A DNA stretch of 64,000 bases from Minisyncoccota bacterium. GTDB lineage: Bacteria > Patescibacteriota > Minisyncoccia > Phycocordibacterales > UBA9973. This document shows, one piece after another, positions 15,173 to 58,479 of this stretch; the stretch's first letter is position 1, and every line of letters starts with the position of its first letter. The stretch lies in NCBI GenBank assembly GCA_021734995.1, contig JAIPHX010000003.1, forward strand, positions 75,969 to 139,968, in the 5' to 3' direction. The translations under genes were made by a program, and so were the position numbers. The notes under the pieces were generated by a model. The model was given only the letters and a program-made list of their open reading frames with translations, ran no database searches and was not told the DNA's origin.

Positions 15173-15196
15173 ACTCTTTATGTTATAATTCCCTTT

Positions 15197-15967: not shown

Positions 15968-15976
15968 GTAATACCA

Positions 15977-16062: not shown

Positions 16063-16079
16063 AATGATATAATTCCTTT

Positions 16080-16532: not shown

Positions 16533-16535
16533 CCA

Positions 16536-16621: not shown

Positions 16622-16649
16622 AAATGTTTTTTGTGTATAATATAAATAT

Positions 16650-17534: not shown

Positions 17535-17566
17535 TATTTACCACTTATTTTTTTCCATTAAACTTA

Positions 17567-17652
17567 TTCGAACATCACCCCAAGTTCGGAGCAAAATTTT
17601 CGCCCATATTTTATAAAGGTTATTTTTCGGAGGTTAGTAGAAGTTCGAACCT
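17567..17652 (+). repeat. cassette-boundary repeat copy R6 (consensus)
   Basis: ttcgaacatcaccccaagttcggagcaaaattttcgcccatattttataaaggttatttttcggaggttagtagaagttcgaacct. Confidence 0.75.
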
Positions 17653-17738
17653 AAATATATATATTGATACCCACTGTGGGGGAAATATGATAAATTTTGC
17701 ACATATTCTACATAGGCGTGAGATGATATAATGAGACC

Positions 17739-18299: not shown

Positions 18300-18411
18300 T
18301 ACTGATTTGTAGCTAGACCCTTCTTACTACAACTTATTCGTAAAACTTATTACAGTATTACGATACTTACGATATATTTATATATCTTTTATTTATCATT
18401 CAATATCTCTT

Positions 18412-18497
18412 GTCGAACATCATCCCAAGTTCGGAGCAAAGTTTTAAGCAATATATCCCAATGGTTAGTCTTCTTACCTTAGTAAAAGTTCGAACCC
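18412..18497 (+). repeat. cassette-boundary repeat copy R7
   Basis: gtcgaacatcatcccaagttcggagcaaagttttaagcaatatatcccaatggttagtcttcttaccttagtaaaagttcgaacc. Confidence 0.7.
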
Positions 18498-18556
18498 CAT
18501 TGATACTTGCACGGTTTTACTAATGTGATATAATAGGCGTATCACTATGAAGAAGA

Positions 18557-18595
18557 CCCTTATGTAGATTCGTCTACATTGGGGGCTTTTTCTTT
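18557..18595 (+). terminator. rho-independent terminator hairpin (bidirectional context)
   Basis: cccttatgtaga-ttcg-tctacattgggg is a ~11-bp stem followed by ctttttcttttt. It is preceded by promoter-like tgtgatataat (18522..18532) and a tiny ORF (MKKTLM). Confidence 0.5.
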
Positions 18596-19078
18596 TTAGG
18601 CTTTATTTGAGAATTTGTGGTAGTGGTCGTTTAAGAAGGTTATTTCTGTATTTTTATTTCTCAATAAAATAGAGCACTTCTTCTCATCTGGAGCAATAAT
18701 GCAATCCATCGATTTATTTTCTTTTAGAAATTCTACTAAACACCCAAAGTCACCATCTCCTGTTATTAAGATACAAGAATTAAATGATTTAGTATAAAAA
18801 TCAGATGTGGCTTTTAGCACAAGCTCAGCGTCGCAATTTCCTTTTATTTTCTCTCCGATAGATACAGTTTGCTTAAAAATTAAAATATAACCGCACTTTT
18901 GAAGATGTTCATAGAACTTTGTCCTCTCTGGTACTAGCCCAATGAATAGATATACAATCCCTGGATTATATTTTTGACGGAGCCAGCCACGAAATTTTTT
19001 ATAATCAATCTCGAATCCCAGTTCCTTGGCTGATCTGTATAAGTTATTTCCATCAATGTAAATGTTTGCCTTGTTCAT
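18596..19078 (-). CDS. NYN/LabA-like PIN-fold domain protein (inverted cassette)
   Basis: IYIDGNNLY at the N-terminus and ILITGDGDF match the conserved acidic motifs of the NYN domain. Confidence 0.6.
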   Translation of the reverse strand: MNKANIYIDGNNLYRSAKELGFEIDYKKFRGWLRQKYNPGIVYLFIGLVPERTKFYEHLQKCGYILIFKQTVSIGEKIKGNCDAELVLKATSDFYTKSFNSCILITGDGDFGCLVEFLKENKSMDCIIAPDEKKCSILLRNKNTEITFLNDHYHKFSNKA

Positions 19079-19120
19079 TACGTAATTATATCACCCCTTA
19101 ATCCTTTAACAATATACTTA

Positions 19121-19206
19121 TTCGAACATCACCCCAAGTTCGAAGTCAACAAAATCACTTTATTTTACAATGTGATTTTTTATTACTTTAATAGGAATTC
19201 AAATCT
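19121..19206 (+). repeat. cassette-boundary repeat copy R8 (central terminator hairpin, degenerate 3' end)
   Basis: ttcgaacatcaccccaagttcgaagtc-aacaaaatcac-tttattttacaa-tgtgattttttatt...ggaattcaaatct. The -10 atgatataat and an ATG at 19223 follow. Confidence 0.7.
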
Positions 19207-19222
19207 ATGATATAATTTTTGC

Positions 19223-20086
19223 ATGAATGTTGATTTAAAAAAGTTAGGGGAGTCATTGAAAGAAGTTTTTCTTAATCAGGAAAAGTTTGAGATGGATTTA
19301 GTGATCAAAGAATTTAATGGTGCAGATTTTCTTTTCTTTTATATTTATGAGTCACAAGATGATGCATCTCCAATATTTTATTTTATTCTAAGTCCATGGG
19401 ATGCTAAATCAAAGGTTGCACCGCAAGGGGCACAAGTATTCAAAGGTGGCAAGTTAATTTTTCAAACTGATTATACTGAGTATGTAAAAATACGTACTGG
19501 ACTAATGGACGCTTTTGCCCTTCAAGCTATTGGGAAAGATCCATCAAATGCACGTATACTTTATATAGGAGCTGGTGGAGTGGCTGGTTGGTCATTACGT
19601 GCTCTTAAAACATATTTTCCAAAAATCACTAACATAGATTACAAAAATGAAACAAATGGTCAACTAATCTTTGAGGAAATAGGGAAAGAAATTGGTGTTA
19701 AAACAAAATTTATAGATAAGCCAGATTTTGGTGAATATGATTATATTTTTATGCACACTAATTCACGTGAACCAGTACTTTTAGAAGATGATGTACAGAA
19801 ATTAAAAGATGGTGCATTTATTTCAATTTTCAGTGATAAAAATGAAGCAGTCCTTGATGTATACAAAGATGCAACTATATTAGTAAACTGGCTTGATAGT
19901 TTTGAGAAAGAATCAGATCTAATAGAAGGGAAGTCAAAAGGGATTATTGACCCAACACAAGCAATAACAATACGTCATCTTTTAGAAGGCGGAACATTAC
20001 CCACTAAACATCATATTGTTTTCCGTTCTGGTGGTACGCCTATGCAAAACGTTGCAATGCTTAAGTATTTAATGATGAAGGAGTAG
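19223..20086 (+). CDS. hypothetical protein with Rossmann-like GxGGxxG motif
   Basis: ILYIGAGGVAGWSL suggests dinucleotide binding. Otherwise unassigned. Confidence 0.4.
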   Translation: MNVDLKKLGESLKEVFLNQEKFEMDLVIKEFNGADFLFFYIYESQDDASPIFYFILSPWDAKSKVAPQGAQVFKGGKLIFQTDYTEYVKIRTGLMDAFALQAIGKDPSNARILYIGAGGVAGWSLRALKTYFPKITNIDYKNETNGQLIFEEIGKEIGVKTKFIDKPDFGEYDYIFMHTNSREPVLLEDDVQKLKDGAFISIFSDKNEAVLDVYKDATILVNWLDSFEKESDLIEGKSKGIIDPTQAITIRHLLEGGTLPTKHHIVFRSGGTPMQNVAMLKYLMMKE

Positions 20087-20095
20087 ATAAATATA

Positions 20096-20192
20096 TTCTA
20101 ACGTTCTCCCAAGTCCGAAGCAAAATCTCTAACTTTATTTCATAAGGAATTTTTTTCCTACAATTTTAGGAACTATTGCGAAGTTTGAACCT
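20096..20192 (+). repeat. cassette-boundary repeat copy R9 (degenerate)
   Basis: ttctaacgttctcccaagtccgaagcaaaatctc ... ggaactattgcgaagtttgaacct. The -10 tgataaaat and an ATG at 20213 follow. Confidence 0.6.
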
Positions 20193-20212
20193 GTGATAAA
20201 ATTATTGACAAT

Positions 20213-20608
20213 ATGAAACAATCAATTGCTCTTACATCGTTAGTTGTTGCAGATTACGATGAGGCTATTAATTTTTATACAAAAAAACTTCATTTTTCTT
20301 TAATTGAAGATACATATCAACCAGAAGAAAATAAGAGATGGGTAGTTGTTGCTCCACCAGGTTCTTCTAGTTCTCAGCTTCTATTAGCAAAAGCATCTAC
20401 ACCTGAACAAAAATTATTTATCGGTAATCAAACTGGGGGAAGAGTATTTCTTTTTCTAAATACTGATGATTTTTGGAGAGATTATAAAGAAATGATTTCT
20501 GTGGGAATTGAATTTGTGAGAGAACCCAAGACTGCTTCTTTTGGGACATTTGCTGTCTTTAAGGACTTGTATGGAAATTTATGGGACTTAATTGAGGTAA
20601 AAAAATAG
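20213..20608 (+). CDS. VOC-family (glyoxalase/bleomycin-resistance fold) protein
   Basis: 131 aa. Paired beta-alpha-beta-beta-beta modules. The C-terminal FGTFAVFKDLYGNLWDL is typical of VOC proteins. Confidence 0.6.
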   Translation: MKQSIALTSLVVADYDEAINFYTKKLHFSLIEDTYQPEENKRWVVVAPPGSSSSQLLLAKASTPEQKLFIGNQTGGRVFLFLNTDDFWRDYKEMISVGIEFVREPKTASFGTFAVFKDLYGNLWDLIEVKK

Positions 20609-20634
20609 GATTTTTTATTTTCCTACAATACTCA

Positions 20635-20667
20635 TTAGAACATCGTCTCAAGTGCGGGTCAAAATTT
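20635..20667 (+). repeat. cassette-boundary repeat, degenerate 5' half
   Basis: ttagaacatcgtctcaagtgcgggtcaaaattt. Confidence 0.45.
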
Positions 20668-20755
20668 AAAGATAGCTATTAATACATATAAAGTATATGC
20701 TTAATATATTATCTTGTTTTGTCGGGAACATGGACTTATTCTAGATTTTTATTTT

Positions 20756-20893
20756 ATGATTACAACAATTGCAATTATCTTATTGATCTTATGGGTTTTA
20801 GGTTTTATTGGTTTTCCTATTTTAGGAGGATTTATTCACATACTTTTAGTGATAGCTGTAATCCTTGTTTTGCTTCGTATCATTCGCGGGTAA
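20756..20893 (+). CDS. lmo0937-family small membrane protein (45 aa)
   Basis: MITTIAIILLILWVLGFIGFPILGGFIHILLVIAVILVLLRIIRG. The track ORF 20719..20904 is in a different frame. This frame gives the conserved ...LRIIRG C-terminus typical of the lmo0937/DUF5670 family. Confidence 0.55.
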   Translation: MITTIAIILLILWVLGFIGFPILGGFIHILLVIAVILVLLRIIRG

Positions 20894-20924
20894 AACTCAT
20901 TTAATTTTATCCAAAAAGGTTCTC

Positions 20925-21010
20925 ACTTCGTCTAGTAGAGGGAGCAAAATTTTAAGCCATATTTTATAATGGTTACTTTTTGCTATTTTTTTTTGCAAAA
21001 GTTCCTGCCT
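20925..21010 (+). repeat. cassette-boundary repeat copy R11 (degenerate)
   Basis: cttcgtctagtagagggagcaaaattttaagccatattttataatggttactttttgc ... gcaaaagttcctgcct. Confidence 0.55.
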
Positions 21011-21036
21011 GAATTATTTTGGTGTATAATTTAAAA

Positions 21037-21573
21037 ATGGAAACAATAATAGAAAAAGCAAAAAGATTTGCAAAAGAAGCTCATAAAAATCATTCAGAGA
21101 ATGATTCACTTAAAACACCTTATTTCTTCCATCTACAGAGAGTTGCTAGATTGGTTCAATTATCTGGTGGAACAGATGAAGAAATCGCTTCTGCGTGGCT
21201 TCATGATACGGTAGAAGATACTGATGTAACAATTGAAGATATACAAAAAGAGTTTGGTGACAATATAGCAAGTATTGTTAACGGACTAACAGACCTACTT
21301 GAATGGAGTAAACTTTCTATTTCAGAAAAAAAATTAGCCCAAGCAGAAAGGATTTCCAACGAAAATGATTCTGTAAAACGAGTTAAGATTGCTGACCAAA
21401 TCTCTGGTAGTGAATTAGATGCTAGAAATCTTCTTATAAGCAAGCAAGATAGATTGGAAAGTTTTGAAGGTGTTAAAAAGGTTGCTAGTGCTTGTAATGG
21501 AGTTAGTCAAGGTCTTGATGATTTATTTTCTGAAATAAGCGAAGAGATAGACTGGTATTTAGCGAATAGCTAG
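21037..21573 (+). CDS. HD-domain metal-dependent phosphohydrolase
   Basis: HLQRVARL ... WLHDTVEDT gives the H...HD...D motifs. Start moved to the ATG at 21037 (METIIEKAKRF), because the track start at 21019 would include the tgtataat promoter. Confidence 0.65.
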   Translation: METIIEKAKRFAKEAHKNHSENDSLKTPYFFHLQRVARLVQLSGGTDEEIASAWLHDTVEDTDVTIEDIQKEFGDNIASIVNGLTDLLEWSKLSISEKKLAQAERISNENDSVKRVKIADQISGSELDARNLLISKQDRLESFEGVKKVASACNGVSQGLDDLFSEISEEIDWYLANS

Positions 21574-21581
21574 AATAGCTA

Positions 21582-21666
21582 TTCGAACATCCTCTAAAGT
21601 TCGGAGCATTGCAAATATTCTCATTTTTCAGGGGTATTTTTTCTACTTTATAACAAGTGCTAACCT
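21582..21666 (+). repeat. cassette-boundary repeat copy R12
   Basis: ttcgaacatcctctaaagttcggagcattgcaaatattctcatttttcaggggtattttttctactttataacaagtgctaacct. Confidence 0.65.
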
Positions 21667-21683
21667 GTGGTAGAATTAAAATT

Positions 21684-22247
21684 ATGCAAAATAATGTATT
21701 TATATTCCACGGAACTGAAGGATACCCAGAAGAAAACTGGTTTCCTTGGCTAAAAGAAAAACTTGAAGCAAAAGGTTGTAATGTTATTGTGCCACAATTT
21801 CCAACTTCTCCAGTAGTGCCTGCTAAAATAGCAGAATGGTTTGAGGTCCTAAAAGGTTATGAGCAGTATATAAATGAAGATACAATTTTAATTGGTCATA
21901 GTTTAGGTGGCGTATTTGCTCTAAGAGTATTAGAACAATTAAAACATCCAGTCAAAGCAGTTTTTCTAACAGGAACACCAATAGGAGTAAAACCAATTCT
22001 TAGTTATGATAGGGATAATAGTTTTGGTGGTTTTAATTTTGATTGGCAAAAGATTAAAACTAACGCTAAACATTTTGATGTTTTTCAATCAGACAATGAC
22101 CCTTATGTTTCTTTAGGGAATGGAGAACAATTAGCTAAAAAATTAGGTGTTGAGCTTACTTTTATACCAAATGCTGGGCACTTTAATAAAAAAGCAGGAT
22201 ACTTAAGTTTTCCTGATTTATTAACTAAGATTGAAACAATTTTATGA
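21684..22247 (+). CDS. alpha/beta hydrolase (YdeN/RBBP9-like serine hydrolase)
   Basis: Nucleophile elbow GHSLGG, catalytic-region Asp and a C-terminal His (NAGHFN). Start moved to the ATG at 21684 (MQNNVFIFHG), downstream of the tggtagaat -10. Confidence 0.6.
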   Translation: MQNNVFIFHGTEGYPEENWFPWLKEKLEAKGCNVIVPQFPTSPVVPAKIAEWFEVLKGYEQYINEDTILIGHSLGGVFALRVLEQLKHPVKAVFLTGTPIGVKPILSYDRDNSFGGFNFDWQKIKTNAKHFDVFQSDNDPYVSLGNGEQLAKKLGVELTFIPNAGHFNKKAGYLSFPDLLTKIETIL

Positions 22248-22253
22248 GAATAT

Positions 22254-22649
22254 ATGGAAAATTATAGAGGTGTAATAATTGAAGAAAGCTTAGAAAACAA
22301 AGAAGTGCTTAAAAAAGTTCAGATTTTGGAAACCAAGATTAGTATTGTTTCAGAAAAACATAAAACTCCTTGGATTAAACAATGGACCTTGCATACTGTT
22401 TTAATTCCAGAAAATGAAGCTGAGAACATTGCTAAAGAGCTGAGCGTCTCTTTGGATACAGAGCATAACTGGTATGCTGATTATAGAAGCAAAACTCATC
22501 ATTATATTATTTTCAGAGATAAGGTTTTTTACATAAACAGAAAAAGCATAGAAGAATATAATAAAGCAAAAGAGTATGGTCTTTCTTTGGGTATTCCAGA
22601 ATACCAAGTAGATTTTCACCCAGATGTGAAAGAGTGGGAAAAAGAATAA
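22254..22649 (+). CDS. hypothetical protein
   Basis: 131-aa ORF directly after the hydrolase with no intervening repeat. Same cassette. Confidence 0.4.
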   Translation: MENYRGVIIEESLENKEVLKKVQILETKISIVSEKHKTPWIKQWTLHTVLIPENEAENIAKELSVSLDTEHNWYADYRSKTHHYIIFRDKVFYINRKSIEEYNKAKEYGLSLGIPEYQVDFHPDVKEWEKE

Positions 22650-23251
22650 AATTAGTTCTGAGCATTGGTGTTGCTTTTGTAATACATCTATTATTTGGTA
22701 TAATTAATGTTATGAAAAATAACAAAGGTTCAGTGTTAGTTATTGTATTAACAATGGCGTTATTGGTTGCTGTTGGGGGTGTTATATATTATGCAGGTAA
22801 GAGTTCAAAAACTATTCCTTTTGTAGAGGAAAATAATCTACTACAAGAGAATCAAGGTAATGTTGTAAATAATCCAGTAAACAATAATACAACAACAGTA
22901 ACAACTACAACAACTACAGTTGCAACTCCTTCTATTACAGTTCTTTCTCCAAATGGTGGAGAATCATATACTACTAGTACTACCATTAAACAGATTCCAG
23001 TAACATGGAAAAGTTCTGGTATTGTAAGTCGTAATGTTGCCATATATGTTAAAAATGTTTCTACTGGGAATGAAGCACCTATTTTAGTAGCTCCTGATAA
23101 CGGCTCAACAGAAATTTACGGTATTCCTTCTGGAAATTATAAAATAAGAATTTGTAATACTAATGCCCAATCAGGAAATTTTGAGGTTGTATATAACCCA
23201 GATTGTTCCTCTGCTTCTGATTATTCTGATAATTCATTTACAGTTCAATAG
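22634..23251 (+). CDS. membrane-anchored protein with Thr-rich linker
   Basis: Two N-terminal TM helices, a TTTVTTTTTTVATP linker and a beta-rich extracellular domain. Overlaps the previous ORF by 16 nt. Confidence 0.45.
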   Translation: MGKRIKLVLSIGVAFVIHLLFGIINVMKNNKGSVLVIVLTMALLVAVGGVIYYAGKSSKTIPFVEENNLLQENQGNVVNNPVNNNTTTVTTTTTTVATPSITVLSPNGGESYTTSTTIKQIPVTWKSSGIVSRNVAIYVKNVSTGNEAPILVAPDNGSTEIYGIPSGNYKIRICNTNAQSGNFEVVYNPDCSSASDYSDNSFTVQ

Positions 23252-23339
23252 GTATAAGTAATTTAACAAAAAGACCCATTGTAAGGTACCCCATTTTTAA
23301 TACTAAAAGTTAACCTTTAATCCATGTTATAATTAAATT

Positions 23340-23627
23340 ATGGTTAAACATATTTTACTTTTTAAATTCAAGCAAGGAGTAAGCGAAGAGGAAAAGAATA
23401 AAGGAATAGAAATGCTTAGATCATTAAAAGAAAAAGTTCCTGAAATTAAGGAATGGGAGATAGGAATACAGAGAGAGAAATCAGAAAAATTCTATGATTT
23501 TGCCCAAGTATCTTCTTTTGAAAATATTGAAGATATAAAAAGGTTTGGTGAAAATCCAGAACATGAAAAAGTTAAGGCATATCTAAAAGAAAGAGCAGAT
23601 TGGGTAAAGGTTGATTATGATTTTTAA
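23340..23627 (+). CDS. Dabb (stress-responsive dimeric alpha+beta barrel) protein
   Basis: 95 aa. MVKHILLFKFKQGVSEEEK ... fits the Dabb domain. Confidence 0.55.
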   Translation: MVKHILLFKFKQGVSEEEKNKGIEMLRSLKEKVPEIKEWEIGIQREKSEKFYDFAQVSSFENIEDIKRFGENPEHEKVKAYLKERADWVKVDYDF

Positions 23628-23657
23628 ATCATAACTACTAATTTCCACCAATATACT

Positions 23658-23713
23658 TATTTGAACATCATACGAAGTTTAAATTTGCATTAAGGTTTAT
23701 TTATGGGAATAAG
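23658..23713 (+). repeat. cassette-boundary repeat, degenerate copy
   Basis: tatttgaacatcatacgaagtttaaatttgca ... aaggtttatttatgggaataag. Confidence 0.45.
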
Positions 23714-23834
23714 AATCAAAAAACTTAAATACTGTTGTTTAATTACAGAAGAAAATGTTTGATACATTAAGATTCGTCTCCAAATAAAACTATCCAAATA
23801 CTTCCATAGTATGAAATATTTTTTAGAACTGTAT

Positions 23835-24284
23835 TTATGAATTAATTTTTATAAATGCTTCTTTCACTGACTTGTTAAATATAAAATAATAACCAATAAT
23901 AAGGTTAATCACCAAAATAATGAAATTATCATAATTGCCATTTAATATTGATCCAATACTTACCAAAATTCCAAGAATAGAAATAATGATAACAAGAATT
24001 CTTGTCCAGTTTTTACCAGACCATAAACCCCTAGCTACAAAAAAATATACAAAACCAATTAGGATTACAATAAAACCAATAACAACAAAAACAGCAGTGC
24101 CTATTGTAGTTATTGGTGGGAAAAATTGACCCATAACTCGAGACAATATATTGCCTGCAAATATTGCCCAAATTCCTGAAATCCAAACACCTACCGCAAT
24201 AATATAATTTATAACAGCTAGTATTTTTACTGGCAAAGGTACAATTTTTAATAAACTTTTATCCTCTATAATTTTATTATCCAT
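23835..24284 (-). CDS. membrane protein (inverted cassette)
   Basis: 149 aa, 4 predicted TM helices. Confidence 0.45.
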   Translation of the reverse strand: MDNKIIEDKSLLKIVPLPVKILAVINYIIAVGVWISGIWAIFAGNILSRVMGQFFPPITTIGTAVFVVIGFIVILIGFVYFFVARGLWSGKNWTRILVIIISILGILVSIGSILNGNYDNFIILVINLIIGYYFIFNKSVKEAFIKINS

Positions 24285-24430
24285 AAATTTTATTAATATT
24301 AATTACTTTTCTAATACATATATATTAACCTAAATACTAAAAAATTCATAAAAATTAAACATCTTCTTTTTTCGCTAAATAACTTGGAATATTCGCTTTA
24401 GTTTCATCTTTGGTGAGATGGGACTGTCTC

Positions 24431-24501
24431 ATGTTTGGATCCTAATTTAAAGTCATATATTTTAATGGTTATTTTGCCTACCTAAGTAGCAGTTCAAACC
24501 C
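24431..24501 (+). repeat. cassette-boundary repeat copy R14 (3' half conserved)
   Basis: catgtttggatcctaatttaaagtcatatattttaatggttattttgcctacctaagtagcagttcaaaccc. The -10 tgatataat and an ATG at 24518 follow. Confidence 0.6.
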
Positions 24502-24517
24502 ATGATATAATACTAAA

Positions 24518-24865
24518 ATGTTTAATAAAAAAAATATACAAAATATACCAACAGAGCAAACCTCACATAACTCTGGTTCTAGAAAGATGTTGACTACCAA
24601 AGAAGAAGTTGACTCTAGGTGCTTTGAAGCTTTTACTTACGGGTTTTTACCACCAAAAGAAAAATGGGTAATGCACAAACATGAAAATATTGTTGAAATA
24701 TGTTTGGTAGTAAAAGGGTCTGGTGTTATCAGAAACTTAAAAGGGGAAACAGAAAAATTTGAATCTGGAGACAGATTTATTTTCCCCTCTGACATAGAAC
24801 ATGAAATAGAAAATCTTTCGGAGGAGACAGCAGAATTTTATTTTTTTAGGATTCAATGTATTTAA
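24518..24865 (+). CDS. cupin-domain protein
   Basis: HKHENIVEICLVVKGSG ... GDRFIFPSDIEHEIEN gives the two cupin motifs. Confidence 0.6.
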   Translation: MFNKKNIQNIPTEQTSHNSGSRKMLTTKEEVDSRCFEAFTYGFLPPKEKWVMHKHENIVEICLVVKGSGVIRNLKGETEKFESGDRFIFPSDIEHEIENLSEETAEFYFFRIQCI

Positions 24866-24871
24866 GACTTA

Positions 24872-24956
24872 TTCGAACATTGTCCAAAGTATAGAGCCTG
24901 TGAATCACTTTTATCTTCAAGGCAACTTTTACCTACCTTTGTAGAAGTTCGAACCT
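24872..24956 (+). repeat. cassette-boundary repeat copy R15
   Basis: ttcgaacattgtccaaagtatagagcctgtgaatcacttttatcttcaaggcaacttttacctacctttgtagaagttcgaacct. Confidence 0.7.
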
Positions 24957-24972
24957 ATGATAAAATCATCAT

Positions 24973-25668
24973 ATGAAAAAAACACCAGAACAAGCATTAG
25001 AAGAAATATTTGATGAGTATAAAGATCAAGGCCTCATCTCCCTATATTTATATGGTTCAATTTTAACAAAAGATTATATTGAAGGTGCGAGTGATATTGA
25101 TTCAATTGGTTTTGCCACTGAAGAAATGTCAATTACTCTTGAAAATGAAATAAAAAATAAATTGTGTGAAAAAACTGGTTTTGAACAATTTGGTTTTAGA
25201 CTTTTATATAAATCTGAATTAGATACAGGGGTCATAAAAGGCAATTTAGCAAGTTTCATTCATCCACAGTTATTGCTTCTTGATTTTCCACATTGGAAAT
25301 ATGTAATTGGTAAAAACTTTCTGAGGTCAGATTTTTTACTAGTAGATATTGATGCAATTGGGGCTGTAAAAATTAGGTTAGATCACTTAGTAAGAATTGA
25401 AAATGAGTCATTTAAAACACATCCAGGGGGTAAACACATTTTGTTTTTAAAAGTTTTAGCTCGGATAATGTTTCATTTACAAAAAGAACGAGGTTGTAAT
25501 GACCCTTTTTCATATAGTTCAGTATTTTCTAATTCAAACGAGGAAGAAAAACCAGTTGCCGAAGCAATCCTTAACTGTAAAAAAAGTAAATGGGATGAAT
25601 CTATGTTCAAGGAAAATGTGACTATTTATAAAAACTATATTGATACTCTGAGGAGTCGTTATTTATAG
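24973..25668 (+). CDS. ANT-like nucleotidyltransferase (putative aminoglycoside/lincosamide adenylyltransferase family)
   Basis: LYLYGSILTKDYIEGASDIDSIGF matches the GS-x9-DxD polymerase-beta-like NTase motif seen in ANT(9)/AadA/Lnu enzymes. Confidence 0.55.
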   Translation: MKKTPEQALEEIFDEYKDQGLISLYLYGSILTKDYIEGASDIDSIGFATEEMSITLENEIKNKLCEKTGFEQFGFRLLYKSELDTGVIKGNLASFIHPQLLLLDFPHWKYVIGKNFLRSDFLLVDIDAIGAVKIRLDHLVRIENESFKTHPGGKHILFLKVLARIMFHLQKERGCNDPFSYSSVFSNSNEEEKPVAEAILNCKKSKWDESMFKENVTIYKNYIDTLRSRYL

Positions 25669-25683
25669 AACCTATCATATTCA

Positions 25684-25769
25684 GTCGAACATTGTTCCAA
25701 GTTTGGAGTAGAATTTAAAGCCATATTTTACAATGGATATTTTGGGTACCTTTTTATGCTTTGAAACCT
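25684..25769 (+). repeat. cassette-boundary repeat copy R16
   Basis: gtcgaacattgttccaagtttggagtagaatttaaagccatattttacaatggatattttgggtacctttttatgctttgaaacc. The -10 tggtataat and a leaderless ATG at 25786 follow. Confidence 0.7.
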
Positions 25770-25785
25770 TTGGTATAATAAAATT

Positions 25786-35546: not shown

Positions 35547-36032
35547 ATGACAAAAAAAGCAGTATTAGCAGGGGGTTGTTTTTGGGGATTAGAAGAATTA
35601 ATCCGAAAACAGCTCGGAGTGGTAGATACAAGAGTAGGTTATGCTGGTGGCAAGAACACAAATCCCACATATCAGGATCATGAAGGTCATGCAGAAGCGG
35701 TAGAAATTACTTATGATGATACTCTGACCTCTTACAGACAAATTTTAAATTTCTTTTTTCAAATACACAATCCTACAACTTTAAATCAGCAGGGAAATGA
35801 TAAGGGTACATCTTATCGTTCTGCTATTTTTTATACTAATGAAGAAGAAAAAAAAGAAGCAATTGATTTTATTGATATCGTAAACAAATCAGGCCGTTGG
35901 CAGAATCCTGTAGTGACCACTCTTGAACCATTCTCTAAATTTTATTTAGCAGAAGAATATCATCAAGATTATCTTCAAAAGAATCCAAATGGCTATACTT
36001 GCCATGCTATTTATTTTGATAGTTATTTGTAG
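35547..36032 (+). CDS. msrA: peptide methionine sulfoxide reductase A
   Basis: Active-site GGCFWGLEE (GCFWG) and conserved YHQDYL. Confidence 0.85.
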
Positions 36033-36105
36033 GGGTAATTTAGTAAAATATTTTTATATTTTCTTTTTCTTGTTTCTTTATTTGTAATTTTATATAATAA
36101 TATGT

Positions 36106-36795
36106 ATGAAAATTACAATAAGAGAGATTCCTAACCCCAAAAAAGAGCCTGACCTAAAAGAGTCTATTACTACATATTTTAAAATAAATGGGCATAAAAT
36201 TCCTTTTACTCATCAAGAGACTACCGCTAATTGTGGACCACTTGCTCTGGTAAATGGTGCAAAAACATTACAATCTGTCTCAAAAGAATTTTTTATGCCT
36301 AAAGATTTTCCTATAACCGCTAAAGGAATAAGAGAACTCTTTATTTTAAAGCCAAGTTTAAAAAAACAAATCTGGGGGACACACTCAGATGAGACTATTG
36401 TTAGTGACTCTTTTCCTTTACTTACTACTCATGTAGATAATTTATTAAGAATGCTTTGTCAAGGTTCAAATTTAAAAATCATTGGAGACAGATTCCATGT
36501 GAATAATACTAGTGAGGTTATGAAAATGGGGCAAACCGATAAATCCATTGATCAAGCAGACTGGTTATTTTGCCATAAAAGCATGGGTAAAATTGGTCAT
36601 TATGTCAGTTTCGTACGGATCAATAAAAATGAATGGGTTTTACTAGATTCTCTGATGAAAGAACCGCTAGTTGTTAATCAAAATCATATAAAAAATGAAT
36701 ATAGAGATACAAAACAAAGCTTCCCTCTTTTTGTTGCTTTAAAGGTTTCTTTAAAGGTTGAGGCTTCTCCTATTATAATTACAAGAACGAAATAG
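36106..36795 (+). CDS. hypothetical protein, possible C39-like cysteine peptidase fold
   Basis: TTANCGPLAL (Cys) ... GHYVSFV (His) suggests a papain-like Cys/His pair. Tentative. Lies between msrA and a duplicated msrA 3' end. Confidence 0.35.
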   Translation: MKITIREIPNPKKEPDLKESITTYFKINGHKIPFTHQETTANCGPLALVNGAKTLQSVSKEFFMPKDFPITAKGIRELFILKPSLKKQIWGTHSDETIVSDSFPLLTTHVDNLLRMLCQGSNLKIIGDRFHVNNTSEVMKMGQTDKSIDQADWLFCHKSMGKIGHYVSFVRINKNEWVLLDSLMKEPLVVNQNHIKNEYRDTKQSFPLFVALKVSLKVEASPIIITRTK

Positions 36796-36809
36796 TTTTG
36801 ATTCTTTAT

Positions 36810-36898
36810 GCTACGCAGAAGAATATCATCAAGATTATTTACAGAAAAACCCAAATGGCTATACTTGCCACGCTATTTATTTTGATAGTTATTTATAG
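36810..36898 (+). pseudogene. duplicated 3'-terminal fragment of msrA
   Basis: cgcagaagaatatcatcaagattatttacagaaaaacccaaatggctatacttgccacgctatttattttgatagttatttatag is ~90% identical to 35945..36032. It encodes ...[26 protein letters not shown]. Confidence 0.7.
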
Positions 36899-52814: not shown

Positions 52815-53840
52815 ATGAATAAAATAAAAGTAGGAATCAATGGTTTTGGCCGTATTGGCCGTGCTTTTTTTAAAATAGCTTTTGATCGTGAAGATTTAGA
52901 AGTAGTGGCAGTAAATGATCTTGGAGATGTTCACAATATGGCGTATTTATTAAAACACGATACCGTTTATAGAACATGGGCACACGATGTTCAGTCTGGT
53001 GAAGGTGAGATAGTAGTAGATGGTAGAAAAATAAAAGTATTAGCCGAAAAAGATCCAGTAAATTTACCTTGGAAAGATTTAGGAGTAGATGTAGTAGTAG
53101 AGTCCACAGGATTTTTTACTTCTTTTGATAAAGCTTCTGCCCATTTGCAAGCAGGCGCAAAAAAAGTAGTAATTTCAGCTCCAGCAAAAGGGGAAAATGA
53201 TTCAGTAAAAGGTGAGACTATATTACTGTCTGTAAATGAAGAAAAATTTGGTACTTGTGATGTGACTTCTAATGCTTCTTGTACTACAAACGCTGCTTCT
53301 CCTTTGATTGCGATTTTGCATGAAGCTCTTGGTATAGAGAAAGCAATTTTAAATACTGTACATGGGTACACAGCTTCTCAAGCATTAGTAGATGGAGCTA
53401 ATAAAAAAGATTTTAGAGAAGGAAGGGCAGGGGCGCAAAACATAGTGCCAAGCTCTACAGGGGCTGCGATTGCGGTAATAAAAGCATTTCCAGAGCTTAC
53501 AGGGCTTTTTGATGGTATATCTATCAGAGTACCCGTACCCGCTGGATCTATTGTAGACATTACTTTTATTTCTAAAAAAGAAACTTCTAAAGAAGAAGTA
53601 AATGAAATTTTACGCAAAGCTTCACAAGATCCAAAATGGAATAAAATTTTTGGAGTCACAGAGGAGGATTTAGTATCTAGTGATATTTTGGGAGAGTCTA
53701 GAGCATCTTTGGCTGATCTAAAAATGACTAGAGTGGTAGGTGGAAATCTAGTAAAAGTTCTTGGGTGGTATGATAATGAAATGGGGTATACTTATACTTT
53801 AGTAGATCATGTTATAAAAACTGGAAATACAATACGTTAA
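52815..53840 (+). CDS. gap: glyceraldehyde-3-phosphate dehydrogenase
   Basis: KVGINGFGRIGR NAD-binding motif, catalytic ASCTTN, C-terminal WYDNEMGY. Leaderless start after tgatataat. Confidence 0.9.
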   Translation: MNKIKVGINGFGRIGRAFFKIAFDREDLEVVAVNDLGDVHNMAYLLKHDTVYRTWAHDVQSGEGEIVVDGRKIKVLAEKDPVNLPWKDLGVDVVVESTGFFTSFDKASAHLQAGAKKVVISAPAKGENDSVKGETILLSVNEEKFGTCDVTSNASCTTNAASPLIAILHEALGIEKAILNTVHGYTASQALVDGANKKDFREGRAGAQNIVPSSTGAAIAVIKAFPELTGLFDGISIRVPVPAGSIVDITFISKKETSKEEVNEILRKASQDPKWNKIFGVTEEDLVSSDILGESRASLADLKMTRVVGGNLVKVLGWYDNEMGYTYTLVDHVIKTGNTIR

Positions 53841-53864
53841 AAGTTTGAAACTGAGAAATTTAAG

Positions 53865-54485
53865 ATGAGCTATTCGGAAGAAAGTAAAAATAAATTACTT
53901 CAATACTATAATAATTTAATTTCAGAGCATACAGATAATAATGCACAAGCTCAAGGTTGGGCGAGTGAAGATACAGAGAATGCTCGTTTTGAAATATTTT
54001 CTAAAGTTGGTGATTTAAATAATCATTCAGTTTTGGATGTTGGGTGTGGCTTTGGAGATTTCTACAGTTTTCTGAAAAGTAAGAGAATTGATTGCAAATA
54101 TACAGGTATAGATATAAATCCGGAAATGATAAAAACAGCAGAAACAAAATATCCAAGTGCGCAATTTCAAGTAATAGATTTTGGGGATAATGATTTTACA
54201 GAAAAGTTTGATTATATCTTTTGTTCTGGCGCCTTGTCCTTCATGGTGCCCGACTATAAAAACTTTTATTTTGCTAAAGTAAAAAAAATGTTTGAATTGT
54301 CCAAAAAGGGAGTGGCCTTTAATATGCTTACAGAAAAAAATAATATTAAAACTGAAGATGAAAAATTATATGCGACTTATTCTACCCAAGAAGTTCTTGA
54401 TTTTTGCAAAGAATTAACAGAAAAAGTATCTATACAAGAGGGTTATTTACCAAATGATTTCACGGTATTCTTGTATCACATTTAA
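53865..54485 (+). CDS. class I SAM-dependent methyltransferase
   Basis: Motif I VLDVGCGFGDF. Lies inside the segment bounded by the duplicated gap 3' ends. Confidence 0.55.
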   Translation: MSYSEESKNKLLQYYNNLISEHTDNNAQAQGWASEDTENARFEIFSKVGDLNNHSVLDVGCGFGDFYSFLKSKRIDCKYTGIDINPEMIKTAETKYPSAQFQVIDFGDNDFTEKFDYIFCSGALSFMVPDYKNFYFAKVKKMFELSKKGVAFNMLTEKNNIKTEDEKLYATYSTQEVLDFCKELTEKVSIQEGYLPNDFTVFLYHI

Positions 54486-54602
54486 TTCGTTTCTTGCTAT
54501 ATAAAAATGTTTTGGTATGGTGTTCGTTGGTGATTAATTCATTGTCTCGAAAGAGGTCAGTCGGGTATACGGCTTGATGCTAAAAATGAAAAATCACAGG
54601 GC

Positions 54603-54636
54603 AGACATCTGAGCAAGGTGTCTGTTTCGTTCTTTA
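54603..54636. terminator. terminator-like hairpin between convergent genes
   Basis: cagacatc-tgagcaag-gtgtctg followed by tttcgttcttt. Confidence 0.4.
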
Positions 54637-54649
54637 GAGTAAAATTTAA

Positions 54650-55081
54650 CTAGGCATCACTTAAATCAATAAGATATTTTTTCAGCGTTCTTTGAATTTG
54701 AATGACTATTTTCTCACGAGAAATTGGTTTACTTCTCGCTATGCCTTTTGCAAAATTGTACAAATCCTCGTTACTCATCCGTATCCACTTTCCATTTTTA
54801 TGACAAAGATAAAGCATACTCATAACTGCAATTCTTTTGTTCCCATTTTGGAATGGGTGATTTTTAATTATAAAATAGAATAAAACACTAGCTTTTCCAA
54901 TAAGCCCTCTGTATAAATCTTTCTTATTAAATTGCATAAACGGGGTTTCTATACAGCTCTCGAGTATATTAGGAAATCTAGTGCCGAATTCGGGGATAGG
55001 TTCATCGTAAGTCATTAACTTTTGTGCAAATAAGAATGCAACGTATTCTATTTCCTTTACCGTAATTTTCTTTGTTCTCAT
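54650..55081 (-). CDS. Fic/Doc-family toxin (Doc-type)
   Basis: HPFQNGNKRIA matches the Doc-type Fic motif HxFx(D/N)GNKR. 1-nt overlap with the upstream HTH gene. Confidence 0.75.
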   Translation of the reverse strand: MRTKKITVKEIEYVAFLFAQKLMTYDEPIPEFGTRFPNILESCIETPFMQFNKKDLYRGLIGKASVLFYFIIKNHPFQNGNKRIAVMSMLYLCHKNGKWIRMSNEDLYNFAKGIARSKPISREKIVIQIQRTLKKYLIDLSDA

Positions 55082-55335
55082 TACTCTTTACTTAATTTAT
55101 TAAATACTTCCCCGTATTCTTTTAATGCTTTATCAATTACTTTTTCTATTTCTGTTCTTTTGTGAGTACCAATAGTTTCTCCCAAAATTTCTTCGATAGA
55201 TTCATAGGGAATGACATAATTGCGACCAATTTTTTCAGCCTTAATTTTTCCGCTCTTTATTTTCCTAAAGATCTCTACTCTACTTAAGTGTAGTATGTTA
55301 GCGACCTCTTGAGTTGAATACATGTTTTTCTTCAT
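55081..55335 (-). CDS. helix-turn-helix DNA-binding protein (putative antitoxin)
   Basis: YSTQEVANILHLSRVEIFRKIKSGKI is an excisionase/MerR-like HTH. Upstream of, and overlapping, the Doc gene. A palindrome gtaacatatgttac (55345..55358) lies in its promoter. Confidence 0.6.
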   Translation of the reverse strand: MKKNMYSTQEVANILHLSRVEIFRKIKSGKIKAEKIGRNYVIPYESIEEILGETIGTHKRTEIEKVIDKALKEYGEVFNKLSKE

Positions 55336-55484
55336 GTTTGTATGGTAACATATGTTACATTACAAATCAACCCATATTTAAAAGGTCAAACAAGACATTG
55401 CTATTTAAAACCAAGCTTGGTAAACTTATATCTAGGTGAGCTCGACAGGGGCTTTTCTTAGAGACTTTTATGATAAAAATGATA

Positions 55485-55558
55485 TGGTATCGTAATGAAA
55501 TGGGGTATACTTATACTCTTGTAGATCATGTGGTAAAGACAGGTGGGAGTATAAAATA
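55485..55558 (+). pseudogene. duplicated 3'-terminal fragment of gap
   Basis: tggtatcgtaatgaaatggggtatacttatactcttgtagatcatgtggtaaagacaggtgggagtataaaataa is ~80% identical, in frame, to 53766..53840. It encodes WYRNEMGYTYTLVDHVVKTGGSIK*. Confidence 0.7.
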
Positions 55559-56506
55559 ATGGATAAAAATTTAGAAATATTAAGAGATGTCCCTCAATTA
55601 GATTTTAAAGATATCTATAGTGATATTCTTGATATAGAAAATTTAATTAAATATAAAGATTATACTAGCGATAAAATAGAAGAAGAAAAAAAGAAAAAGA
55701 TAAAAAACAAATTAGGAACTATAAATAACTACAGTCAAGTTACTTTAGGACTTAAATTCTCTTTTTTCCAAAAAAAGGAACCAGACTTAGAGGAATTATC
55801 ACACAAAGAAAGATTAACAATAGATATTGTTGATTATGATATGTTTGTTAATTTTTTAGAAAGTTTAAAGAAAGACATAGAAAATAAACCTCAAAATGAT
55901 TTTTTGGTTTTCATTTTATCTAAATTAGTTGGTCAGTTTAGGTATCATTATCACTTTGATACATTTAATAAAAGAAAAGTAGATGATAATTTTTTAGATT
56001 TTGTTTTTTGTATAGAAAAAATATTAAAAGAATATGATCGATTAGGTTTAGAAAGTTATACAACAAAACTAAAAGAATATAATGATTTATTAAAGAAAGG
56101 TTATATTAAAGAATATATTCTTGCAAAAGAAATGGGTTTCATTAAATCAAATGATGAAAAGATTTTTAATTATTTATCTACTTCAAATCCAAAAATGTAT
56201 TCAGAAAGTTGGAATGATTTCTTTGTGTTTGTTCAAAAATGTAAAGAAAATCCTAAATCCATCCCTTTATTGAAAGAAGTATTTGAAAATGCAAAAAATG
56301 CAATAAAACAGCACAGACAATATATAGATTATCGTTTAGAACAGTTTAAGAATGTAGATATAAAAATGATGAAAAGAAACGATAAGGAAATGTACTTATT
56401 TAAAAAAATTGTAGAAGATTATGATAGAGTTCACTCAGTTGATGATATAATTAAATCTGTAGAATATAAGTTTTCTTTTTTAGAAGAATATTTAAAAAAT
56501 AATTAA
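55559..56506 (+). CDS. hypothetical Lys-rich protein
   Basis: 315-aa ORF starting at the ATG overlapping the stop of the gap fragment. Confidence 0.4.
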   Translation: MDKNLEILRDVPQLDFKDIYSDILDIENLIKYKDYTSDKIEEEKKKKIKNKLGTINNYSQVTLGLKFSFFQKKEPDLEELSHKERLTIDIVDYDMFVNFLESLKKDIENKPQNDFLVFILSKLVGQFRYHYHFDTFNKRKVDDNFLDFVFCIEKILKEYDRLGLESYTTKLKEYNDLLKKGYIKEYILAKEMGFIKSNDEKIFNYLSTSNPKMYSESWNDFFVFVQKCKENPKSIPLLKEVFENAKNAIKQHRQYIDYRLEQFKNVDIKMMKRNDKEMYLFKKIVEDYDRVHSVDDIIKSVEYKFSFLEEYLKNN

Positions 56507-56509
56507 ATT

Positions 56510-57157
56510 ATGAAAAAACAAATAGGAGGAGTTGTGTTAAGTAAAATAAAAAAAGGTAAATTGATATTTTTTGTTGTTTTGTTTTTCTCTTTTGTTTTTG
56601 TTACACAAAATGTTTTTGCTTGTAGTCCTATACAAAGAACTGCACAAGAAAATATTGAATATGCAGATATAATTTTTACAGGGGAACTTGTGTCAAACAT
56701 AGAACCTAAATCTGAATATATAGAAAACTTGGGAGAATTTTTTGGTTTGCACACTATGACTTTTAAAGTTGAAAAATATTGGAAAGGTAAACCAGATGAA
56801 ATTTTAGAAGTAAAAGGTGTCACAGAATCTTGTATAGGATTTAGTCCAAAGATCGGTGCTAAATATCTTTTGTATGCTAAAAAAGATAATAATCTTAATG
56901 CATATACTGTTTCCTTTTTGAATATAATTGAAGTCTCAAGTTTATCTGATTATAAAGTATTAGAATCTCTTGGAGAAGCAAAAACTTTTATCAATCAAAA
57001 GTCAATTATAAAAGATGATATTAATAAAAAAAATATCAAAAAAGAATCTGATAAAAGTATAGAAACAAAAGATTTAAATAATGATATTAATATTGAAGAA
57101 TATAAACCTTCCATCCTACGAAGATTCCTTTTGTGGCTTTTGAGTTTTACTAAATAA
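56510..57157 (+). CDS. secreted hypothetical protein
   Basis: Signal peptide with VFAC (possible lipobox) and a K/D-rich tail. Confidence 0.4.
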   Translation: MKKQIGGVVLSKIKKGKLIFFVVLFFSFVFVTQNVFACSPIQRTAQENIEYADIIFTGELVSNIEPKSEYIENLGEFFGLHTMTFKVEKYWKGKPDEILEVKGVTESCIGFSPKIGAKYLLYAKKDNNLNAYTVSFLNIIEVSSLSDYKVLESLGEAKTFINQKSIIKDDINKKNIKKESDKSIETKDLNNDINIEEYKPSILRRFLLWLLSFTK

Positions 57158-57263: not shown

Positions 57264-57770
57264 ATGAAAATATACATATCAAGCGATCATGCTGGATTTG
57301 AGCTAAAAAAGTTTTTAAAAGAAGCTTTGACTGGTCTAGATTATGAAGTCGTAGATAATGGCCCAGATACTTATTCATCAGATGATGATTACCCAGATTA
57401 TATATCTATTACAGCAGATTTAGTCTCTAAAGAAAAAGAAAGTTTTGGAATTGTAATTGGCGGTTCAGGACAAGGGGAAGCTATTTGTGCAAACAGATAC
57501 AAGGGGGTGCAGGCCATAGTTTGCTATGGTTTGGTCCATTCTTTAGGAGAGCTTGATGTTTCGGGTTCAAAATCTACAGGAGATGGTTTTGACATTATCC
57601 GTCTTGGAAGAATGCACAATAATGCTAATATTCTTTCTTTGGGGTCTCGTTTCGTATCAAAAGAAGATGCTTTAAATGCAGTTCAAATATTTTTGAATAC
57701 TAAGTTTTCTGAGGAAGAAAGGCATGTTCGTAGAATTTTAAAAATTGATAATCAAAACAAAAATGGCTGA
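57264..57770 (+). CDS. rpiB: ribose-5-phosphate isomerase B
   Basis: MKIYISSDHAGFELKKFLKE and GIVIGGSGQGEAICANRYKGVQA match the RpiB/LacAB signatures. Confidence 0.85.
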   Translation: MKIYISSDHAGFELKKFLKEALTGLDYEVVDNGPDTYSSDDDYPDYISITADLVSKEKESFGIVIGGSGQGEAICANRYKGVQAIVCYGLVHSLGELDVSGSKSTGDGFDIIRLGRMHNNANILSLGSRFVSKEDALNAVQIFLNTKFSEEERHVRRILKIDNQNKNG

Positions 57771-58479
57771 TATTATCCCCGCAATTTTATCAAACAACTA
57801 TGAAGATTTAAAAAATAATCTTTCTTTGGTGCGTCATATCGTGCCAATTGTGCAGATTGATATTTGCGATGGTATTTTTACCCCTCATATGACTTGGCCA
57901 TTTTTAAAAAAACCAAAAGGGGATGTAAATGAATTTGAATTGGATTATCATTTTCAAAAAATATTAAACGAGCAGGAAGGTATGCCTTTTTGGGAAGATT
58001 TAGAGTTTGAATTGGATTTAATGGTGCAAGATGCAATGGAAAATTTTGATATATATACAAAAATGGGACCAAGACGAATTGTTTTTCATTTGGAAGCTTT
58101 AAAATCTTTGGAAGACTTTAAAGAATTTTTGGAAGGTGTTGATCCTTTTATAAAAGAATCTGTAGATATTGGTATTGCCTTTGGAACAAATATTGATTTG
58201 GAAAAAGTATACACCTTCGGTAATGTTGTAGATTTTTTTCAAGTAATGGGAATTAAAAAAATAGGTTTTCAAGGAGAGCCTTTTAATGAAGAATGTTTGG
58301 ACTATGTAAAAGCATTAAAAGAAAAATTTCCCGATGTGCCTGTATCAGTAGATGGATCTGTAAATTTTGACACAGCCAACGATCTTTTGTCTGTGGGAGC
58401 AGATAGGTTGGTCATTGGTTCAGCAATTTTTAATACAAATGATATAATAAATACTATAGAAGAGTTTAAAAATTTATAA
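57763..58479 (+). CDS. rpe: ribulose-phosphate 3-epimerase
   Basis: IIPAILSNNYEDL ... VQIDICDGIFTPHMTW fits the RPE pattern (iaPSiLsad...hvDvMDGhFVPN.tf). Start moved to MADIIPAIL. Confidence 0.75.
   Translation: MADIIPAILSNNYEDLKNNLSLVRHIVPIVQIDICDGIFTPHMTWPFLKKPKGDVNEFELDYHFQKILNEQEGMPFWEDLEFELDLMVQDAMENFDIYTKMGPRRIVFHLEALKSLEDFKEFLEGVDPFIKESVDIGIAFGTNIDLEKVYTFGNVVDFFQVMGIKKIGFQGEPFNEECLDYVKALKEKFPDVPVSVDGSVNFDTANDLLSVGADRLVIGSAIFNTNDIINTIEEFKNL

Follow-up and report, generated by a model that had tools for sequence, protein, structure and literature searches.

Duplicated gap 3′ ends in a Paceibacterota genome as probable scars of site-specific integration

In a 64,000-nt stretch of a Minisyncoccota bacterium (contig JAIPHX010000003.1; "the window" hereafter means this whole stretch), the 3′ end of gap, the gene for GAPDH, occurs twice: once at the end of the intact gene, and once more behind a 1.7-kb islet with three genes, for a methyltransferase, a Doc protein and a helix-turn-helix (HTH) protein. 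How did a second gap tail come to lie there, and what does it say about the genes between the two? Our comparisons suggest, with good confidence, that the tails are scars, attL and attR, left by site-specific integration into the gap 3′ end by a phage-like family of Paceibacterota elements with an Xer-like integrase: the same tail is found beside tyrosine integrases, flanks a viral element of ~38 kb, and recurs between gap and rpiB in 7–8 other Paceibacterota species. This agrees with the first-pass annotation of the window, which had read the islet as an insertion at the gap 3′ end that supplied a replacement end and displaced the old one.

The two gap tails and their counterparts beside integrases

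The intact gap gene (52815–53840, plus strand; 341 aa; Pfam Gp_dh_N, 3.8e-38, and Gp_dh_C, 3e-49) is the putative target, regenerated after insertion. Its last 24 codons plus stop (WYDNEMGYTYTLVDHVIKTGNTIR and the stop codon; 53766–53840, plus strand) form the attL-like copy; the attR-like copy is the displaced gap 3′ end (WYRNEMGYTYTLVDHVVKTGGSIK and the stop codon; 55485–55559, plus strand; tail-profile score 50 bits, E 6e-13). The copies share orientation and frame and agree, without gaps, at 58 of 75 bases; aligned locally they score 89, where shuffled sequence averages 24 (sd 3.6, z = 18) and none of 500 shuffles gets as high. The in-frame recurrence of the last 25 gap codons seen in the first pass thus survives alignment, save that its end had been put at 55558, one base short of the true end at 55559. 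The displaced tail stops at 55557–55559, and the last A of its stop is also the first base of the start codon that opens the next ORF (TAATG), the overlap that had also been described, with one base in common. Identity is spread unevenly: 31/33 bases agree in the first 11 codons and 27/42 in the rest, and a block of 25 nt is identical in both copies (53774–53798 and 55493–55517, plus strand), the candidate crossover region. Ten codons differ, five of them synonymously; apart from one codon in the arm discussed below, all amino-acid differences in the displaced tail are states found in functional GAPDH tails, and the C-terminus of the intact gene agrees with the family consensus from 78 relatives. 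At the 5′ edge of the repeat, similarity is lost abruptly at a Trp codon. Repeats from the 3′ end of the target hence flank the insert while the target is full length with both Pfam domains, as in integrative elements of the gene-3′-end type.

The tail has a counterpart in viral DNA. A degenerate DNA pattern for YDNEMGYT matched five stretches in IMG/VR, and the 40.5-kb viral contig IMGVR_UViG_3300014208_001117 carries, in order, gap, ~38 kb of phage-like DNA, an integrase, a gap fragment and rpiB. The full gap lies at 264–1289 of our locus L094 and the fragment at 10376–10447 of locus L092, the ~38-kb distance following from the locus offsets. The integrase (L092 8831–10003) is a 390-aa tyrosine recombinase (PF00589, 4.3e-21) that ends ~370 nt upstream of the gap fragment; it resembles Xer recombinases, with a score under the NCBIfam Xer cutoffs. 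The two gap-tail copies of this contig match over 57 nt with one mismatch, from TGGTAT on. Genes for an AAA_24 ATPase and a PD-(D/E)XK nuclease lie in the left part of the element; its right part has those for a 2069-aa protein and a peptidoglycan (PG)-binding protein.

Searches of viral and metagenome contigs with this integrase and with an alignment of its relatives extended the association: wherever the integrase was 60% or more identical and the DNA reached far enough downstream, the locus carried a gap tail. These amount to 14 distinct integrase-linked fragments in 17 loci (L095–L117), each 430–490 nt downstream of the integrase, on the same strand and starting at the Trp codon; the integrase domain was confirmed in L096, L105, L107 and L114, and in L107 the integrase-linked tail abuts rpiB. 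An integrase clade at 48% identity (L119) has no gap tail, and the target specificity of the integrase family may be limited by clade.

Two further features of these elements were noted. The 38-kb element has near-perfect 20-nt inverted repeats (AAAGTTTTTTAGAGACTCCGC / GCGGAGTCTCTAAAAACTTT; L094 1300–1322 and L092 10351–10372) immediately on the inner side of attL and attR; in a circle they would come to lie on either side of the gap-like attP core, and they may be integrase arm sites. The window holds no counterpart of them, and the short inverted repeats whose search at the islet ends had been proposed in the first pass yielded nothing convincing above chance. In L100 (2898–3780) and L109 (4233–5110), three gap tails stand in tandem ~400 nt apart, directly behind one integrase.

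Fragments of the same kind occur in chromosomal loci. A GAPDH protein scan of one genome per GTDB species gave 80 gap loci, of which 76 (L003–L078) come from metagenome-assembled genomes (MAGs) of Paceibacterota and related members of the Candidate Phyla Radiation (CPR) and four (L079–L082) are more distant, at 48–50% identity. When a GAPDH-tail profile was run against six-frame translations of all gap loci, extra gap tails were found solely on the gap strand and between gap and rpiB, and integrase-less fragments are present in L015, L018, L035, L042, L044, L048 and L074. They differ in their state: the L015 fragment has 60 nt 100% identical to its own gap, the identity starting at ATGGGGTATAC; those of L018 and L035 are both decayed; L042 has four fragments, matching at 56, 51, 53 and 31 of 72 positions, the most distal being the most decayed; and the L074 fragment directly abuts rpiB. 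The Trp-codon start (within ~6 nt) is common to 7/9 integrase-less and all 14 integrase-linked fragments, which makes it a recurrent att boundary. Displaced tails resemble functional GAPDH tails except in their first eight codons: the otherwise invariant WYDNEMGY reads WYR, WYH, WYE, WYN, NEI, NEL or NEV in displaced tails, and genuine gap genes have WYDNE in all 80 loci readable through the stop codon.

The changes in these first codons, which we call the arm, carry information of their own. Of the integrase-linked fragments, 12/14 encode S, R, G, H or N in place of Asp at the third codon, and the 3′ two-thirds are a normal GAPDH tail; the window fragment reads WYR and shares its CGT (Arg) codon with L100, L102 and L109. 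A non-Asp arm followed by a normal 3′ tail is the expected look of attP, or of an attR formed from attP: the arm would be free to vary because the part 5′ of the crossover never encodes GAPDH, whereas the part 3′ of it must. Upstream of the arm, the window has a putative remnant of the right, integrase-proximal arm of an element (55434–55480, plus strand), with a −10-like box, TATGATAAAAAT, at 55469–55480. Positions 55434–55478 align to the segment 45–90 nt upstream of the L105 and L107 fragments, including the box TATGATAAAA (z = 4.1 and 5.1; score reached by 0 and 1 of 300 shuffles, respectively), and because of this alignment we take the islet to keep the extreme right end of such an element.

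A crossover within the shared block around AATGAAATGGGGTATAC fits these data as the position of the exchange. Two comparisons bear on what lies 3′ of it. In a cassette common to L042 and L048, the fragment keeps the arm change NEL in both, and its 3′ part is host-specific (LLQ in L048); in L044, the 3′ part of the fragment matches 34/42 positions of L041, the closest relative by upstream gap, and 31/42 of the gap end of L044 itself. For the window, we infer that the 3′ part of 53766–53840 past the identical block came from the element, and that the 3′ part of 55485–55559 is the native gap end.

The proposed course of events is as follows. The attP of the element would mimic the stretch of gap that starts with the Trp codon of WYDNEMGY and ends with the stop; recombination in the shared block would join the tail copy of the element to the chromosomal gene, so that GAPDH stays intact; and the native gap tail would be displaced to the far end of the element, behind its imperfect arm (WYR, not WYD). 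In the genome of the window, the integrase and the rest of the element would then have been lost, leaving the methyltransferase gene, the HTH–Doc pair, the ~45-nt right arm and the two att-like repeats. As no integrase lies inside the islet, it would be a remnant or mobilizable in trans or cis, and not autonomous: we infer either a deletion remnant or a passenger like the cis-mobilizable elements (CIMEs), which a related integrase could still excise or move. Its mobilization in trans is conjecture.

Competing origins and known systems

Several observations weigh against site-specific integration as the origin of the islet. The window contains no integrase of the gap-targeting family (tblastn of the 64-kb window, not the rest of the genome), there is none in the 80 gap loci, and no integrase stands beside the att-like sites of the islet, as one does inside the elements of the relatives L092, L096 and L100–L117. 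The right-arm homology in the window is short (45 nt), its ~45-nt leader is gone, and CTGAC(A/G), which precedes the Trp codon in many integrase-bearing arms, is not in the window. For the element family, the left end, on the side of attL, is represented by one contig only. The assignment of native and imported halves rests on 42-nt comparisons of little statistical power and is ambiguous for the window. Finally, neither an empty site nor an excised circle was observed for the islet of the window.

The missing integrase has another possible meaning: the islet may be a functional miniature CIME or satellite that never had an integrase of its own and was moved in trans or cis, the gap–rpiB interval being an integron-like array of gap-tail-ended cassettes. 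Small integrase-less units separated by gap fragments do exist, four in L042 and three behind one integrase in L100 and L109; a cassette of one ORF (family A) and a fragment, common to both loci, stands third in L042 and first in L048; the window retains both att-like sites with a 25-nt identical core; and streptococci are known to have tandem CIMEs and microCIMEs at the 3′ ends of genes (PMC7563491). We nevertheless regard this origin as rather unlikely, since neither an excision product nor polymorphic occupancy was observed, the right arm of the window is shorter than integrase-bearing arms and looks like decay, and the cargo differs almost everywhere, with little sign of repeated transfer of one unit.

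Acquisition need not have involved an integrase at all. CPR bacteria are thought to be naturally competent, and transformation with gap as the homology anchor, followed by an illegitimate or RecA-mediated join, could duplicate the gap tail; the repeats start at the most conserved DNA stretch of gap, a similar duplicate of the msrA end in the window (described below) starts at the conserved motif AEEYHQDY, and the window is without an integrase. The same-codon 5′ boundary in more than 20 independent fragments, the element-specific CGT codon in the arm of the window, and the ~45 nt upstream of the fragment that are homologous to integrase-bearing elements all make such a route highly improbable, and ~75 nt at 77% identity is a poor substrate for RecA. 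Still less credible is an origin of the downstream piece as the last remnant of a tandem duplication in situ or of a decayed gap paralogue, the latter named in the first pass as something that would overturn its reading. The piece is in frame, has no internal stops and ends at a stop codon, as a paralogue would; yet neither DNA nor protein similarity extends upstream of the Trp codon, the non-arm amino-acid changes are functional GAPDH states with 5/10 differing codons synonymous, and the same boundary recurs beside integrases. No further significant gap fragment was found in the methyltransferase–Doc spacer or upstream of rpiB. A segment at 54497–54521 (plus strand; TATATAAAAATGTTTTGGTATGGT) matches 55468–55493 at 21/25 positions and may be a truncated older attR, that is, a right-arm/fragment junction; the match is marginal (z = 2.5; 14/500 shuffles reach its score), and we note it as a lead only.

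Site-specific integration into gap, our preferred explanation, has close parallels. The Islander principle for tRNA and tmRNA genes holds that an element restores the split target and that the displaced fragment marks the end of the island (PMC4383910), and elements of the ICESt3 type integrate at the 3′ ends of fda, rpsI and rpmG (PMC7563491). The integrase-bearing relatives described here share with both a tyrosine integrase, a copy of the target 3′ end, and a regenerated gene with a displaced fragment; they differ in that the target is gap, in Paceibacterota (CPR), and in that the copy in the window is without an integrase. A full-text literature search found no report of gap as attB. New, then, are gap as the target, the host phylum and a conserved leaderless mini-ORF (see below); the integration principle itself is textbook.

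Two further comparisons concern the small size of the units. Streptococcal CIMEs are att-flanked, have neither integrase nor transfer genes, and often stand in tandem at the 3′ ends of housekeeping genes; they span 1.2–13 kb, and microCIMEs 130–220 bp (PMC7563491). The 1.7-kb islet, att-flanked and lacking recombination and transfer genes, and the arrays of L042, L100 and L109 look alike to these, the spacing in L100 and L109 being microCIME-like. The right-arm homology to L105 and L107 and the L100 and L109 arrays behind an integrase are compatible with a CIME origin of the accretion type; mobilization was not observed. CIMEs differ in being defined by integrative and conjugative or integrative and mobilizable elements and by conjugative mobilization, whereas the partners of the gap elements look phage-like (IMG/VR contigs, AAA_24, PD-(D/E)XK, PG-binding protein). 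Integron arrays offer a second likeness: small, mostly promoterless cargo units, a repeated recombination site and the newest unit nearest to the entry, the last paralleled in L042, where fragment decay rises with distance from gap. Unlike integrons, the gap elements use a gene tail and not an attC hairpin, and a phage-type recombinase borne by the element and not IntI, and there is no attI–Pc.

The mobile elements of CPR bacteria (Patescibacteria) have been little mapped, and for most of their variable genes no route of entry is known. The locus offers a concrete one: an attB with set limits (the tail of gap, beginning at the Trp of WYDNEMGY), a matching integrase family, and a hot spot with toxin–antitoxin (TA) and Abi-type genes in many species. 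A second gap tail downstream of gap would serve as a marker of an insertion and of its boundaries, useful for annotating islands in MAGs, and the integrase–attB pair is a possible starting point for CPR genetic tools.

The gap–rpiB junction, its cargo and a leaderless mini-ORF

In 68 of the Paceibacterota and CPR loci, the window included, gap is followed by rpiB on the same strand, and in nearly all of these rpe comes next; in the window, rpiB and rpe, the widespread downstream neighbours of gap, lie at 57264–58479 (plus strand; Pfam). The gap–rpiB spacing is at most 40 nt, sometimes an overlap, in 23/68 loci, so that gap abuts rpiB as in an empty site (attB), and rpiB is probably the ancestral neighbour of gap. 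Because 39 of the 68 intervals, of 0.2–4 kb (3.4 kb in the window), hold unrelated genes, the comparison of these loci identifies the junction as a hot spot where insertions recur. The genes that it has taken up in different species include Fic, two DUF6922–AbiEii pairs, Abi_2, HepT with a nucleotidyltransferase, GIY-YIG and DUF3800, and also some housekeeping genes, e.g. dapF; no integrase was among the families listed (25 of 43) that match the 89 cargo ORFs. The largest array seen, at L042 9033–12986, consists of four integrase-less cassettes in tandem, two of them with DUF6922–AbiEii toxin–antitoxin pairs.

Between the displaced gap end and rpiB, the window has two orphan ORFs (55559–57157, plus strand), of 315 aa (55559–56506) and 215 aa (56510–57157), which would have occupied the gap–rpiB slot before the insertion. 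Neither has a Pfam, NCBIfam or PADLOC match or occurs at any of the 80 gap loci. The wider search was made with the 315-aa ORF, which found only itself, under the source name of a "Candidatus Pacebacteria" (Paceibacterota) MAG, among 5.8 billion proteins and nothing in metagenome contigs. No genome with gap directly before the gene at 55559, the comparison that had been suggested at the outset, was found, exact look-ups returning the same contig only; since the 315-aa ORF has no relatives, a pre-insertion state of gap followed by this ORF was not findable.

Within the islet, the Pfam and NCBIfam matches agree with the first-pass assignment of a class I S-adenosylmethionine (SAM)-dependent methyltransferase, a Doc-type Fic protein and an HTH protein between the tails. 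The methyltransferase gene (53865–54485, plus strand; 206 aa; Methyltransf_25, 1.8e-14, and also Methyltransf_31/12/11) is co-oriented with gap and begins 24 nt past its stop; all its NCBIfam matches are far under the curated cutoffs. Known defence systems were considered and rejected, PADLOC giving domain-level matches only: in a comparison with MADS, the methyltransferase matches mad2 partially (5e-11, profile positions 250–405 of 492) and the HTH protein matches mad1 (1e-5, domain level only), and none of the other genes of the multi-gene mad1–mad8 locus is present. Behind the methyltransferase gene, a consensus scan alone indicates a terminator-like hairpin with a T-run (54599–54627, plus strand), which would stop the gap–methyltransferase transcript ahead of the downstream genes. 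Rfam and ARAGORN found neither structured RNA nor tRNA in the islet.

The other two genes form an operon on the minus strand, in which the HTH_17/excisionase-type DNA-binding protein (55081–55335; TIGR01764, 35.2 against a cutoff of 28.8) is encoded upstream and its stop overlaps the start of the Fic/Doc protein (54650–55081; PF02661, 1.6e-9; TIGR01550 DOC_P1, 60 bits against a cutoff of 38.65) at 55081. The Doc translation carries the motif HPFQNGNKR, whose NKR ending we take to be diagnostic for Doc, and thereby fits the Doc family of type II TA toxins; its HTH_17 partner, the putative antitoxin, is not Phd-type by Pfam. Doc homologues number more than 4000 in CPR. With ~44 nt of upstream control region, the pair makes up a discrete unit of 735 nt (54643–55379, minus strand) that recurs, with precisely these limits and at 80–84% identity on the DNA level, in three unrelated contexts (L083–L089), where the HTH_17–Doc pairing is conserved and no repeats bracket it. 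Since the unit recurs in unrelated contexts unbracketed by repeats, the sequence comparison marks it as portable cargo, and not as the agent of insertion; the Doc module was rejected as the cause of the duplication, its close homologues sitting elsewhere without such repeats.

That the Doc module would stabilise the islet, as the first pass had proposed for an addiction module, is a reasonable reading. HipAB on the Shewanella island CGI48 is described as a toxin–antitoxin pair that stabilises a genomic island (PMC8978831). The likeness is a type II TA pair inside an att-flanked island; the differences are that the window has Doc with HTH_17, predicted from the genes, and that the HTH_17–Doc unit is also found outside bracketed islands. 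Two side observations concern its other contexts. The unit repeatedly adjoins a NUDIX gene, divergently in L083–L085 and L087–L089 and convergently in L086; and on the Nomurabacteria-like contig of L087–L089, a 72-nt direct repeat (6432–6503 and 9493–9561; 92% identity) brackets three genes near the Doc module.

What happens to the genes downstream of such an insertion? Immediately beyond the integrase module, the DNA ahead of the integrase-linked fragments follows one order: many have a terminator-like GC-rich hairpin and T-run, next comes an extended −10 box, and then an ATG in the reading frame of the tail. All 14 have this in-frame ATG; its distance to the Trp codon is 24–39 nt in 13 of them, and the remaining one has it at −60 or −75. 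It is absent from 7/9 integrase-less fragments. TAnAAT starts exactly 12 nt ahead of this ATG in 10/14 loci, or 5 of about 7 sequence families, against a background of 0.5% of the ATGs in the same loci, and the ATG lies exactly 6 nt past the −10 box, a spacing as in a leaderless mRNA. In the relatives this ATG opens a mini-ORF that consists of a short Lys/Arg-rich leader and the displaced gap tail, with the native gap stop abutting or overlapping the start of the next gene. The arm promoter and mini-ORF probably limit polar effects on rpiB and rpe in these relatives. It is possible, as a more tentative and broader proposal to which we give somewhat less than an even chance, that the gap elements carry a polarity patch, which would restore transcription and translational coupling (termination at the gap stop, re-initiation on rpiB), and that gap–rpiB would thus be a tolerated, integron-like landing pad for toxin–antitoxin and defence genes in CPR. 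If the mini-ORF is functional, it would exemplify an element that repairs the operon it interrupts.

The window itself has a predicted mini-ORF of 29 aa (55470–55559, plus strand; MIKMIWYRNE...SIK), whose stop overlaps the ATG of the next gene. It keeps the −10-like box without the leader, and the box itself contains the in-frame ATGs (55470 and 55479), so that the device is truncated. The earlier suggestion that the displaced end still provides a context for translational coupling is plausible as a fossil, given the TAATG overlap and the promoter and mini-ORF conserved in integrase-bearing relatives; as a working arrangement in the window it is weakened by the truncation.

Other bracketed and repeated features of the window

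The islet is not the only place in the window where a gene end recurs. The last 27 codons and stop of msrA (35949–36032) are duplicated 866 nt downstream (36815–36898) with 77/84 positions identical, which bears out the earlier remark that the same 3′-end insertion pattern is seen at msrA; the insert (36033–36814) holds a single ORF of 229 aa (36106–36795) without a family match. All seven nucleotide differences between the copies are synonymous, and for this reason both must have evolved as functional gene ends in different genomes, unlike the products of a duplication in situ. A C-terminal piece of msrA stands at the end of an IMG/VR phage contig (L140; capsid, ClpP protease), a hint that phages may attach at the msrA tail as well; this contig, the sole viral one found to end in an msrA fragment, shows no integrase. 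A core motif common to the gap and msrA repeats (GGNTATACTT) was considered and set aside as too short to tell from shared Gly-Tyr-Thr codons.

Elsewhere, a 102-nt direct repeat (12470–12571 and 13169–13270; 74–81% identity) brackets a minus-strand ORF of 164 aa without a family match, just after a polysaccharide deacetylase gene. A family of ~96-nt repeats follows at 14442–25778, in 8–9 copies set 560–1600 nt apart with one or two small genes between them (NUDIX, cytidine deaminase, 6PGDH-like dehydrogenase, GrpB, NYN); the repeats end in TTCGAAC...GTTCGAA and fold weakly. Their layout resembles a cassette array or a cluster of attC sites lacking integron integrases (CALIN; attC-type sites without an integrase), and no integrase was found beside the array. 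The start of the window carries a tRNA-Ala(TGC) gene (1176–1251), a group I intron (2094–2403; 86 bits) and a LOOT RNA (5961–6084; 68 bits), a set consistent with an intron-bearing rRNA operon, and such operons are typical of CPR bacteria.

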